From contig NZ_JAYESI010000001.1 in assembly GCF_041903675.1 (NCBI RefSeq), positions 160,643 through 224,642 on the forward strand: a stretch of 64,000 bases of DNA, given 5' to 3'. This DNA comes from Corallococcus sp. RDP092CA (GTDB lineage: Bacteria; Myxococcota; Myxococcia; Myxococcales; Myxococcaceae). The notes beneath the pieces are model-generated. The model did no database searches. It was given only the letters and a program-made list of their open reading frames with translations, and was not told the DNA's origin. A program made the translations under genes and the position numbers. This document shows positions 45,271-49,702 of this stretch, in pieces (position 1 is the stretch's first letter; every line of letters begins with the position of its first letter).

Positions 45271-46821
45271 CTACTGCGAGAAGCCCTCGAGGAGGTAGTG
45301 GGCCTCGATGCGCTTGAGCGCGAGGATCATCGCGGCGCAGCGGCTGTCCACCGTCTTCCCGATGCAGTACGGGCGGCTGTCGTGCATCTCCGTCTTGCGC
45401 GGCTGGTTGCGCGAGATGTCCCGGATGATGCGGTAGTTGCGCTTCATGGCGCGCTCGAGGCGCTGATCGACCTCCGCCTCGCTCCAGCGCTCCATGCGCT
45501 TGTTCTGGATCCACTCGTAGTAGGACACCGTCACGCCGCCGGCGTTGGCGATGATGTCCGGGATGAGCTCGATGTTGCGCTTCTGCAGGACGCGGTCGGC
45601 CTCCGGGGTGGTGGGGCCGTTGGCGCCCTCCGCGATGAGCTTGACCTTGAGGCGCTCCGCGATGTCCGCGGTGATCTCGCCCCCCAGGGCGGCGGGGACG
45701 AGGATGTCCGCCTGCACGTCCCAGAGGTCCTTCTTCTCGATGCGCTGGGCGCCGGGGAAGCCCACGACGGAGCGCTTGAGGTTCTTGGGGTCCGCCACGT
45801 AGGCGGCCAGCGCGTTCACGTCGATGCCGTCGCCGTTGAAGATGGAGCCGTCGGCGTCGTTCACGGCCAGCAGGCGCGCGCCCATGTTCGACAGGATGAG
45901 GGCGGCGTTGCTGCCCACGTTGCCGAAGCCCTGGAGGACGAAGGTCTTGCCCTTCACGCTCTCGCCGCGGTCGGCGTAGTAGTCCTCGATGCAGAACGCG
46001 ACGCCCTGGCCGGTGGCCTTGCCGCGGCCCTCGGAGCCGCCGATGCGCACGTCCTTGCCGGTGACGATGCCGCGCAGGTTGTGGCGCTCGCGCTCACCGT
46101 CGGAGAACTGGCGGTACAGCAGCGCCATGATCTCCGGGTTGGTGCCCACGTCCGGCGCCGGGATGTCGATGTTCGGCCCGATGAGGCTCTTGAGCCGGTA
46201 CATGAAGCGCAGGGTGATGGCCTCCAGCTCCTCGCGGCCGTACTCGCGCGGATCCAGCTGGATGCCGCCCTTGCCGCCGCCGAACGGGACCTCCGCGATG
46301 GCGGTCTTCCAGGTCATCTCCGCGGCGAGCGCCTTGAAGAGGTCCAGGGACACCTCGCGGTGGTAGCGCAGGCCGCCCTTGTAGGGGCCGCGGGCCTGGT
46401 TGTGCTGGACGCGGTAGGCCTTGAAGCGCTGCGACTCACCGGGGACCAGCTGGTACACCAGCCCGTCCGGCAGGCGCAGGTGGCCGTGGCGGATGGCGAC
46501 GTCGGAGCCCAGCAGGGCGCGGCCGTTCAGGATGAGGTTGCCGTTGGCCAGGCGCTCCAGGCCCTCGGGGTTGCGCACCTGGGTGACGGAGAGGTCGGCG
46601 AAGGACTTCGCCGCCTCGGCGGACAGCGGCACGAGCCGGTCCTTGAGCTTCGCGGTGACGTAGAAGATGTGCTCGTAGTCGGGCTCTTCGAGCTCCAGAC
46701 GCACCCGCTTGTCCAGGCCGATGAGATCCGCCGCGAAGTGGAAGATCTCCATCGCCTCCGTGTAGATGGTGCGCTTGGGCGTAGGGGCCGGGGCGCGCAT
46801 GAAAGTCTCTTCGCTGGCCAT
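45271..46821 (-). CDS. gdhA: NAD(P)-specific glutamate dehydrogenase
   Basis: KGGLRYH active-site Lys motif, GFGNVG dinucleotide fold. 516 aa. Confidence 0.85.
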   Translation of the reverse strand: MASEETFMRAPAPTPKRTIYTEAMEIFHFAADLIGLDKRVRLELEEPDYEHIFYVTAKLKDRLVPLSAEAAKSFADLSVTQVRNPEGLERLANGNLILNGRALLGSDVAIRHGHLRLPDGLVYQLVPGESQRFKAYRVQHNQARGPYKGGLRYHREVSLDLFKALAAEMTWKTAIAEVPFGGGKGGIQLDPREYGREELEAITLRFMYRLKSLIGPNIDIPAPDVGTNPEIMALLYRQFSDGERERHNLRGIVTGKDVRIGGSEGRGKATGQGVAFCIEDYYADRGESVKGKTFVLQGFGNVGSNAALILSNMGARLLAVNDADGSIFNGDGIDVNALAAYVADPKNLKRSVVGFPGAQRIEKKDLWDVQADILVPAALGGEITADIAERLKVKLIAEGANGPTTPEADRVLQKRNIELIPDIIANAGGVTVSYYEWIQNKRMERWSEAEVDQRLERAMKRNYRIIRDISRNQPRKTEMHDSRPYCIGKTVDSRCAAMILALKRIEAHYLLEGFSQ

Positions 46822-47119: not shown

Positions 47120-47195
<76 letters not shown>

Positions 47196-47202
47196 AGAAG
47201 TC

Positions 47203-47240
47203 CAAGGGCTTGGGTGGCTTCGGTCGCCCAAGCCCTTTTT
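47203..47240 (+). terminator. Rho-independent terminator after tRNA-Thr
   Basis: caagggcttgggtggcttcggtcgcccaagccc followed by ttttt. Confidence 0.6.
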
Positions 47241-47475
47241 CTATGTTGCCTACGAGGCTCCGCGCCGTTTCGAGTGCCCGCGCGACCGGGCCGAGGAACT
47301 GGTGCATCAAGGAGCCTGACGTCCTCCACTCCCCCCGTCCAATCGTGGCGCGAACAGCGACCGGTCGCTCGTGCCGGTGCCGAGCGGGAGGACCGCGCAA
47401 GCTTCGCTGGGATTGTCGGACCCTGAAGTCAGGATGCCGCGCCTCCTGATTCCAGGAAGGTACCTTGGGGGGAGT

Positions 47476-48774
47476 ATGAGATTGATTGCAGTGGCGTCTT
47501 TGCTGCTTCTGTTGGCGGGGTGCGCGACCCCCCGCGTTGTCCACATCGACGTTGGGAATGGGCAGCGAGTCGTCCATGAGTCGGTGGAGGTTGACCCAGT
47601 TCAGGTGGGTGAGGACGAGTTCAAGGCGGCCCTCACGCAGCTCCTCCTCGACATGCGAATGGACGTTGCCTTCCGCGAGACGGATGCAGCCGACCGGCGA
47701 GGGTGGGTGAGGTCCCGGTCGTTGCTCGCATCCTCGAAGGGGCTCGCGGATTCGGGGGCTGGGGTGTCTCCGGAGTCCCTGTATTCGCGCATCTGCCCCG
47801 AGGGCGACGAGTGCTTGACCCTGGTGGACGGCACGGGGCTGCCCTTCTCGCGCAAGGACCGAACGTTGATGGCCCTGTCGTTCGCGCTGGATACGGTCTG
47901 GGGGAGCGTCGAGGCCGAGATCGGCAAGCTGCTGAACCCGGTGGTGCTCAAGGCCATGGTGACCTCCGCGGCGCTGACCGTGCTCCTCACGATGGCGCTG
48001 CCCGAGCCTGTCACGAAGGTCCTCGCCGTGGCGTTGACGGCGGCGATGGTGGCCTACCTGGGGGTGGTGCCTGTCTGGGAGATGGGACGGGGCTTCGTGC
48101 GGCTGTGGGACAACGCGGAGAGGGCAACGAGCGTCCTCGAGTTGCAGGACATCGGTCATCGCTTCGGGAAGGTGCTGGGGACGAACGGCACGCGTGTCCT
48201 GGTGCTGCTGGTCACGGCGGCCCTGGGTGGGAGGAACGCGATGGCGGCCCAGGGGCCCCGGCTCCCGGGCTTCCCCCAGGCTGTGTCCCGAGGACAAGCC
48301 GAGGCGGGCTTCCAACTCGGAGCGGCGATGAATGGCGGCGTGTCGTCCATCGCGCTGCCCGCTGCTGGAGTGCTGAACGTGACGCTGGCTCCGGGCGCGA
48401 CCGCTGTCGTCGCGATGTACTCGAATGGTATTCAGGGTGACGCTGAAGGTCCGGTTCACCACATCTGTACGAACAAGAACCCGGTTTCGGCTGTATCAGG
48501 CGGTCCCTGGACACCGTTGTGCGAAGAGGTCTTTGCCCGAGCCGGGATGTCCCTGGAAGATGTCTCCAACAAAGTCCGACTCGGGGGACACCAGGGACCT
48601 CATCCACGCGAATACCACGAGGCGGTATTGCGGCGCTTGAATGACGCGCTAGGAAAATGCAGGAGCATGGACGCGTGTCGGAGTCGCCTGGTCGAAGAGC
48701 TTGCCAGAATCGCAGAGGAGCTTCTGACGCCAGGTTCAGCGCTTCGGCGCCTGATTGTGCCGAAAGAGGGCTAG
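47476..48774 (+). CDS. Lipoprotein polymorphic-toxin candidate with C-terminal AHH/HNH-type nuclease domain (SitA-like)
   Basis: MRLIAVASLLLLLAGC lipobox after GGGGGGAG RBS. Two hydrophobic helices mid-protein. C-terminus VHHICTNKN...AGMSLEDVSNKVRLGGHQGPHPREYHEAVLRRL resembles the AHH nuclease signature. GC drops at the C-terminal domain. Confidence 0.55.
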   Translation: MRLIAVASLLLLLAGCATPRVVHIDVGNGQRVVHESVEVDPVQVGEDEFKAALTQLLLDMRMDVAFRETDAADRRGWVRSRSLLASSKGLADSGAGVSPESLYSRICPEGDECLTLVDGTGLPFSRKDRTLMALSFALDTVWGSVEAEIGKLLNPVVLKAMVTSAALTVLLTMALPEPVTKVLAVALTAAMVAYLGVVPVWEMGRGFVRLWDNAERATSVLELQDIGHRFGKVLGTNGTRVLVLLVTAALGGRNAMAAQGPRLPGFPQAVSRGQAEAGFQLGAAMNGGVSSIALPAAGVLNVTLAPGATAVVAMYSNGIQGDAEGPVHHICTNKNPVSAVSGGPWTPLCEEVFARAGMSLEDVSNKVRLGGHQGPHPREYHEAVLRRLNDALGKCRSMDACRSRLVEELARIAEELLTPGSALRRLIVPKEG

Positions 48775-48777
48775 TGG

Positions 48778-49368
48778 ATGTTCAATGGAAATTACTATGA
48801 TGTTGGAATTGCGGATGTCCCTCAGTGGGTGCTGGAGTTGCCTGTTCTTGCATCTGGCGACGAGCTAGACGACCCGTGGATGTTTGGGGACGGAAGGCGC
48901 CTGCCAGAGCCAGGACTCCTCAAGAGCAGGCCGTTCCGTGACGGGCCACAACGGTCCTTCTCTGTGGCGAATTCAGGGAGAACGCCTATCGCAGACGAGC
49001 AGGCTGCGAATGTCTTTCGCAAGCTGGCGCCTGCTGATGTTCAGGTGTTCCCCATCGAAGTCGCAGGAGCGAGGAAGCCACTCTTTGTCATCAACGCAGC
49101 CAGGTGCTTCAAATGCGTTGATGAGACAAACTCCAAGGAGGTGCAGATCTATCCTCCAGAGGGTGTCGCACCGGAGAGAGTCGGAACGTACCGTGCCATT
49201 TACGGACTGCGTATCGACCCTTCCAAATCAGAGGGTGCCCGGGTCTTTCGGATACAAGGCTATTCTTCTGCGTTCATCGTCTCTGAGGACATCAAGACCG
49301 CCCTCGAAGCAGTCGGGAACCTGGGCGTTTCGTTCGAGCGTGTGACCGGACCGCACGAGCCTCACTGA
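48778..49368 (+). CDS. Candidate cognate immunity protein
   Basis: ATG lies 4 nt after the toxin stop. Lowest-GC part of the window. 196 aa. No signal peptide. Confidence 0.4.
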   Translation: MFNGNYYDVGIADVPQWVLELPVLASGDELDDPWMFGDGRRLPEPGLLKSRPFRDGPQRSFSVANSGRTPIADEQAANVFRKLAPADVQVFPIEVAGARKPLFVINAARCFKCVDETNSKEVQIYPPEGVAPERVGTYRAIYGLRIDPSKSEGARVFRIQGYSSAFIVSEDIKTALEAVGNLGVSFERVTGPHEPH

Positions 49369-49375
49369 CGGTCGG

Positions 49376-49615
49376 TCAGGGGCGCGACAGCGTCGCGGGT
49401 GCTCCTCCCGAGGGGAGCAGCGCTTCGCGGTTCTTGAAGAAGATGAAGACACCCATGACGACGAGGAACAGGGAGAAGGCCCGTTTGAGCGCCGCCTGGG
49501 AGACGTAGTGGGACGCCCAGGTGCCGAGGAGGATCCCGGCCACGGCGATGGCCGTGAAGATCCCCAGCGCGCGCCAGGGGACCTCCACGTGGCCCAGGTA
49601 GCCGGCGAAGCCCAC
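49376..49615 (-). pseudogene. C-terminal remnant of a TauE/SafE (TSUP) sulfite-exporter family gene
   Basis: 79-aa ORF equal to the last two TM helices of TSUP proteins (ILLGTWASHYVSQAALKRAFSLFLVVMGVFIFF). No in-frame upstream continuation. Confidence 0.45.
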
Positions 49616-49702
49616 GAAGGCCGAGCGTGGCGAGCCGCGAGGCTTGGAGGTCTTGATAGGGGGAGGGCGTCATCGCTTGTCTCCTGAGGGCCGCGTGGGA
49701 CG

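Follow-up and report, generated by a model that had tools for sequence, protein, structure and literature searches.

The 64,000-nucleotide stretch of DNA from Corallococcus sp. RDP092CA analyzed here (the window) contains, directly behind a putative toxin gene, an open reading frame of 196 codons beginning with ATG. The initial annotation regarded its product as a candidate immunity protein of an unrecognized family. The locus therefore raises the question to which family this protein belongs, which toxin it would neutralize, and whether both genes together form a known type of system. Our answer, which we give with high confidence, is that the open reading frame is sitI5 and codes for the cytoplasmic Imm11 immunity protein of a two-gene sitAI5 toxin–immunity cassette operating by the mechanism proposed below.

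The tight coupling of sitI5 to the upstream gene was seen correctly before, but the spacer is 3 nt and not 4 nt long: the stop codon TAG of sitA5 at position 48772–48774 is followed by TGG and then by the sitI5 start codon. The same 3-nt spacing is found in the orthologous cassette of Myxococcus xanthus. As read from the sequence, the GAGG motif within the 3′ end of sitA5 (Table 1) is likely to be the site of translational coupling. We found no sigma-70-like promoter between positions 46800 and 49800 and no terminator-like site downstream of sitI5. Both genes lie in the same frame; within positions 48772–48780 only the TAG and the TGG part them, and read-through of the stop codon would yield a toxin–immunity fusion.

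The GC content of sitI5 is 56.7%, compared to 71.6% for the window. As all segments of 591 nt that are this GC-poor (within 2 points) start within 48392–48800, the gene indeed has the lowest GC content of the window, as had been stated. The absence of a signal peptide is likewise consistent with our checks of residue composition, Kyte–Doolittle hydropathy and lipobox, which were used rather than a dedicated predictor. The N-terminus of SitI5 (MFNGNYYDVGIADVPQWVLELPVLASGDELDD) has neither lysine nor arginine among its first 10 residues, carries 7 acidic residues among the first 35 and has no hydrophobic core, the highest 19-residue Kyte–Doolittle mean of the protein being 1.06. In addition, no lipobox was found in the N-terminus.

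The family of the protein can be named. When checked against the Imm families of Pfam, as had been proposed, SitI5 matches Imm11 (PF07791) at 29.7 bits, which exceeds the gathering cut-off of 22.1 (E 5e-7). The match is modest and covers residues 74–189 only, corresponding to profile positions 75–192 of 194. Imm11 was previously called DUF1629, so that the earlier guess of an Imm or DUF family was right. Among 5.8 billion proteins searched, a full-length NCBI entry with 100% identity is named "imm11 family protein [Corallococcus sp. RDP092CA]", and 184 homologs were found at E ≤ 0.001 (best E 4e-128). PF07791 is precomputed in 117 of the 120 homologs listed, and their hosts, where named, are Myxococcus, Corallococcus, Pyxidicoccus, Cystobacter, Stigmatella, and Hyalangium. 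Among 1.84 billion cluster representatives, a search by profile retrieved 1,438 relatives at E ≤ 0.001; judged by these matches the family is large. Two proteins from the profile search (P0123 with 854 aa and P0124 with 840 aa) contain two Imm11-like stretches each and may be polyimmunity or fusion proteins.

The NCBIfam models gave 0 matches to the immunity protein. A single-sequence search of the PDB returned no match, and with the SitI5 profile MXAN_0049 was reached at a non-significant E of 0.61. The structural comparison is more telling. An AlphaFold model of SitI5 based on an alignment of 115 sequences (pLDDT 91.3, pTM 0.87) was compared by Foldseek to 350,542 PDB chains and had a sole significant match (E 4.7e-7), namely 6A4C, the NMR structure of MXAN_0049; the second-best match had an E of 0.64. 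Model and structure superimpose with TM scores of 0.61/0.56 over 206 aligned columns at 14% identity. An earlier model from 20 sequences (pLDDT 69.8, residues 112–163 unresolved) likewise had 6A4C as its top match. Given this low identity and the E of 0.61 of the profile link to MXAN_0049, the assignment rests on the Pfam match, the fold and the gene context taken together. From sequence and model we conclude that SitI5 is a member of the Imm11 family with a predicted alpha+beta fold of the MXAN_0049 type. Thus, the family is not an unrecognized one: the Pfam cut-off is passed, the NCBI name is imm11 and the fold is that of MXAN_0049.

The context is provided by the upstream gene sitA5, whose start is most likely the ATG at 47476; the M. 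xanthus ortholog has been called at 433 aa. A regular expression search located the lipobox LAGC at residues 13–16 of the product, and its N-terminal hydrophobic window of 12 residues has a Kyte–Doolittle mean of 3.0. The product also matches the SitA5_escort model NF050093 of NCBIfam with 285 bits, where 160 would suffice as cut-off. Further downstream follows the AHH nuclease domain (PF14412, 72.6 bits against a cut-off of 22.3), in which the motif VHH...N...H..H...YH can be read completely. AHH is the only Pfam domain of SitA5 above the cut-off (DUF2512 stays below the threshold with E 0.089), and a T6SS-associated domain was not among the Pfam matches. For the toxin domain no sequence relatives were found in the PDB. 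These matches identify the product as a predicted lipoprotein toxin of the SitA5 family with a C-terminal AHH nuclease domain.

Table 1. Positions of the features of the sitAI5 locus in the window; functions are predicted from the sequence
Feature	Position	Strand	Description
tRNA-Thr (anticodon CGT)	47120-47195	+	280 nt upstream of the sitA5 start
Terminator-like hairpin	47204-47237		15-bp stem, after tRNA-Thr
sitA5	47476..48774	+	SitA5-family polymorphic lipoprotein toxin, 432 aa plus TAG stop
Lipoprotein signal peptide	47476..47523	+	MRLIAVASLLLLLAGC; lipobox LAGC (Cys16)
SitA5 escort domain	47500..48237	+	Residues 9-254; NCBIfam NF050093, profile positions 2-261 of 262
AHH (HNH/EndoVII-fold) nuclease toxin domain	48421..48723	+	Residues 316-416; Pfam PF14412, E 3e-20
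GAGG Shine-Dalgarno-like motif	48766..48769	+	Sequence reading; within sitA5 3′ end, 8 nt before sitI5 ATG
sitI5	48778..49368	+	Imm11-family (PF07791) immunity protein, 196 aa, predicted cytoplasmic
TauE-type (sulfite exporter family) C-terminal remnant	49391-49624	-	81% identity

The locus thus has all the parts by which a sitAI5 cassette is recognized, that is a lipobox, a SitA5 escort domain, a polymorphic C-terminal toxin and an immunity gene downstream on the same strand. Imm11 genes are expected next to a nuclease domain of the AHH, HNH, or SHH type (PMC3482391), and in the window an AHH gene is indeed located 3 nt upstream. [quoted passage not shown] The window pair does not belong to this subtype, because its toxin is a SitA5 lipoprotein.

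The same order of lipobox, escort, AHH domain, and downstream imm11 gene is known from the SitAI5 cassettes of Myxococcus, for example, from the sitAI5 Mf2 allele with AHH and from eight loci of DK1622 (PMC8546572, PMC12077181). The pairing of the AHH and Imm11 families was described earlier (PMC3482391), and each of the eight ahh–imm11 loci of the DK1622 SitAI5 family has its imm11 gene downstream of the toxin gene (PMC12077181). AHH-bearing SitA5 toxins are lipoproteins which are passed between cells by TraAB-mediated outer-membrane exchange (PMC8546572). Their escort domain governs the entry into the cytoplasm, and their C-terminal domains are modular nucleases; in the tested alleles this entry involved ExbB1, through which resistance likewise maps to the escort (PMC8546572). 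Transposon insertions in the SitI5 genes of DK1622 lower fitness (bioRxiv 10.64898/2026.08.28.747804). As the AHH–Imm11 pairing and the ahh–imm11 loci of SitAI5 are published and as the exact protein is annotated at NCBI, the sitI5/sitA5 pair is already known: it is an ordinary myxobacterial toxin–immunity pair for kin discrimination. The value of our analysis is mostly corrective, in that an unplaced gene is recognized as a textbook SitI5/Imm11 gene in a SitA5–AHH cassette for distinguishing kin from non-kin; no new question is opened by it. The window allele itself comes from a genome of the Corallococcus type, and its toxin tip and immunity protein differ by 15–50% from those of other alleles. 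Since each allele adds one element to the published "self-identity barcode" of a strain, it should be useful for predictions of strain compatibility.

The present analysis establishes the family, the fold, the toxin architecture, the gene coupling, the adjacency among homologs, the co-variation, and the purifying selection. For the binding and neutralization by SitI5, the transfer by outer-membrane exchange and the nuclease activity, we infer from the published relatives how the cassette might work. SitA5 would be lipidated at Cys16, placed in the outer membrane and handed to neighboring cells during TraAB-mediated outer-membrane exchange. The N-terminal escort domain would then bring the toxin into the cytoplasm of the recipient, where the C-terminal AHH nuclease (HNH/EndoVII fold) would degrade nucleic acid. 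SitI5, co-translated from the same operon, would stay in the producer cell without being transferred and would bind the AHH domain 1:1 and thereby block it. Clonemates with the same allele would survive, whereas non-kin lacking the allele would be poisoned. Neither traA nor traB was seen within the 64 kb, and it is from the family of the escort domain that we assume a delivery by outer-membrane exchange.

If SitI5 is the partner of an AHH toxin, its homologs should be neighbors of such toxins as well, and the neighborhood search proposed earlier bears this out. The sample comprised 80 loci from GTDB species genomes. The upstream neighbor of the sitI5 homologs carries an AHH domain in 66 of 79 cases and a SitA5_escort domain in 58 of 79. 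Considering all imm11 genes in the fetched loci of these other myxobacterial genomes, 77 of the 92 are located directly behind an open reading frame with an AHH-type domain, which means that this frame ends −40 to +200 nt upstream. The remaining 15 comprise 4 tandem second or third copies, 1 gene at a contig edge and ∼10 orphans. The imm11 homologs thus overwhelmingly adjoin toxin genes, and the concern that they might never do so is clearly removed; the adjacency is not universal, as ∼10 of the 92 have no AHH domain directly upstream. In M. xanthus the ortholog, which is 85% identical, lies 3 nt behind the AHH protein gene in every place examined.

In some Corallococcus genomes one or two extra imm11 genes follow the orthologous sitAI5 cassette (L008, 4801–5991; L007, 4738–5316; L069, 4652–5218). 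With SitI5 of the window the extra proteins share 50–57% identity in L007 and L008 and 38% identity in L069, and the tandem genes constitute homogeneous polyimmunity arrays. We also considered such an array for the window and rejected it, as the window has a single imm11 and a single sitA5 gene and no second copy of either was found within its 64 kb.

The existence of orphans and tandem extra copies (∼10 and 4 of the 92) shows that imm11 genes can stand alone as protective genes. One could therefore suppose that the window cassette has decayed, with a toxin that no longer works and an imm11 gene that persists solely as an "orphan" shield, protecting the cell from AHH toxins which other strains deliver. 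The neighborhood of the cassette would fit, as it has suffered deletions: genes present in M. xanthus are missing, and the TauE-type gene is reduced to a remnant. The toxin gene, however, does not look like that of a decayed cassette. It is an intact open reading frame of 432 codons in which the lipobox, the whole escort domain, and all of the xHH...N...H..H..YH motif are present, and in comparison to M. xanthus its dN/dS ratio is 0.16, in the escort part as well as in the toxin part. For sitI5 the ratio is 0.14; hence both genes are under purifying selection. We therefore regard a decayed cassette as quite improbable and retain the reading of a working sitAI5 pair.

A second alternative is that SitI5 is not the partner of the adjacent lipoprotein toxin at all but concerns AHH toxins of the T6SS. 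MXAN_0049 is the prototype of Imm11; it binds and neutralizes the nuclease MXAN_0050 (PMC12077181, PMC12077131), a T6SS effector. SitI5 shares with MXAN_0049 the Pfam family, the full-length fold, and the type of toxin partner, AHH, and Imm11 homologs with as little as 46% identity are reported to cross-protect (PMC12077181). On the other hand, SitI5 and MXAN_0049 share no more than 14% identity, and the upstream protein is a predicted outer-membrane lipoprotein devoid of a T6SS-type N-terminal domain. In addition, the MXAN_0049/MXAN_0050 pairs of the T6SS and the pairs of outer-membrane exchange are assigned to distinct clades in a published commentary (PMC12077181).

The divergence of the immunity protein also bears on this question. 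Over 41 curated toxin–immunity pairs the identity of the immunity protein correlates with that of the toxin domain (r 0.93), and the correlation persists when the escort identity is taken into account (partial r 0.83, Mantel p ∼0.001, a partial Mantel result which shared ancestry can inflate), whereas for the escort the partial r amounts to −0.35. Many loci share 78–87% identity with the window in the escort, but 60–70% in the AHH domain and 49–55% in the immunity protein. The divergence of the immunity protein thus follows the adjacent toxin domain and not the escort; taken with the points above, it is very improbable that SitI5 serves another toxin. That the immunity protein goes together with the upstream toxin is well founded on the SitA5/AHH neighbor, by the adjacency in the 77 loci and by this co-variation. 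That SitI5, a predicted inhibitor, is instead an accessory protein or chaperone for the stability or export of SitA5 is hardly credible, as the prototype of the family neutralizes its own nuclease (PMC12077181) and SitI5 has no signal peptide or membrane segment with which it could join an exported lipoprotein; and a chance open reading frame in a low-GC spacer is ruled out by the 184 homologs and the dN/dS of 0.14.

Toxin tip and immunity gene also share their base composition. In the window GC3 falls from 0.85 for the escort part to 0.64 for the toxin domain and 0.61 for sitI5, with the drop at ∼48376–48421, the junction of escort and AHH domain. The corresponding medians of 40 homologous loci are 0.84, 0.71, and 0.71, and typical genes of these genomes have a GC3 of ∼0.95. 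Low GC is thus a trait of the tip-plus-immunity module throughout the family and does not indicate that this genome imported the module recently. Tip and immunity gene probably form one co-evolving low-GC module that would set the specificity of the allele.

The comparison to M. xanthus leads to the evolutionary side of the locus, which we find mildly interesting. In both genera the cassette is found at the same chromosomal site, between a glutamate dehydrogenase gene and a gene for a protein with metallo-beta-lactamase fold, and it has the same arrangement of AHH gene, 3-nt gap, and imm11 gene. By blastn the cassettes are 82.8% identical in nucleotide sequence and the whole aligned flanking segments 81–82%, while the flanking coding genes taken alone are more conserved than the cassette (glutamate dehydrogenase 90%, lactamase-fold gene 88%). 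As the tRNA-Thr gene lies shortly upstream of sitA5, the cassette is situated in a tRNA-adjacent variable region. Between tRNA or hairpin and sitA5, M. xanthus alone has a DUF2381 gene and an open reading frame of 166 aa (window 47243–47392 vs. L003 2972–4612). Downstream of sitI5 the window lacks, in comparison to M. xanthus CP017170, an open reading frame of 138 aa, TehB, most of TauE (its 5′ part) and a rhodanese gene; the TauE remnant corresponds to residues 183–260 of the 265-aa M. xanthus protein. Insertions or deletions therefore distinguish the two genomes on either side of the cassette. Nothing argues for a discrete integrated element, since a search of the whole window found no repeat of the 3′ end of tRNA-Thr and no meaningful or att-like direct repeats were found to flank the cassette.

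We also considered a recent horizontal transfer from a low-GC donor and rejected it in view of the homologs, the dN/dS values, the flank-like divergence (82.8% vs. 81–82%) and the low GC3 throughout the family. The flank-like divergence in the blastn comparison of whole segments and the same gene neighborhood in two genera rather suggest that the low GC3 of AHH domain and imm11 is maintained and is not a signal of recent transfer. Usually sitAI loci are regarded as mobile cargo of recent acquisition; mildly unusual is here that a low-GC module, the parts of which co-vary, has persisted in the same tRNA-Thr-adjacent neighborhood of two genera. The further-reaching idea of an old allele that stayed at its site across genera, its unusual base composition being actively upheld, appears rather unlikely to us. 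Such an upkeep could be brought about, for example, by recurrent exchange of tip and immunity gene or by selection for low expression. Possibly SitI5 cross-protects against the 85% identical toxin of M. xanthus, and if this is true, cross-protection would link kin groups across genera.

A more distant relation exists to the double_CXXCG proteins (PF09535), which go with SitA6, are also immunity partners of lipoprotein nucleases and belong to the same Pfam clan (CL0767) as Imm11 (PMC12077181). Nevertheless, they are a different family; Pfam gives no PF09535 match in SitI5, and the partner of SitI5 carries the escort of SitA5 and not of SitA6.

Finally, the cassette may be compared to the CdiA-CT/CdiI and Rhs-CT/RhsI systems. 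Their proteins share no homology with those of sitAI5 outside the toxin-domain superfamily, and they employ a two-partner or type VI secretion apparatus, whereas SitA5 would be delivered as a lipoprotein by outer-membrane exchange. Like sitAI5, however, these systems combine a conserved delivery part with a variable tip, to which the gene for the cognate immunity protein is tightly linked. In Rhs and CDI systems the tip-plus-immunity module has a lower GC content than the delivery part, and the GC3 values measured in the window give the same picture for sitAI5.
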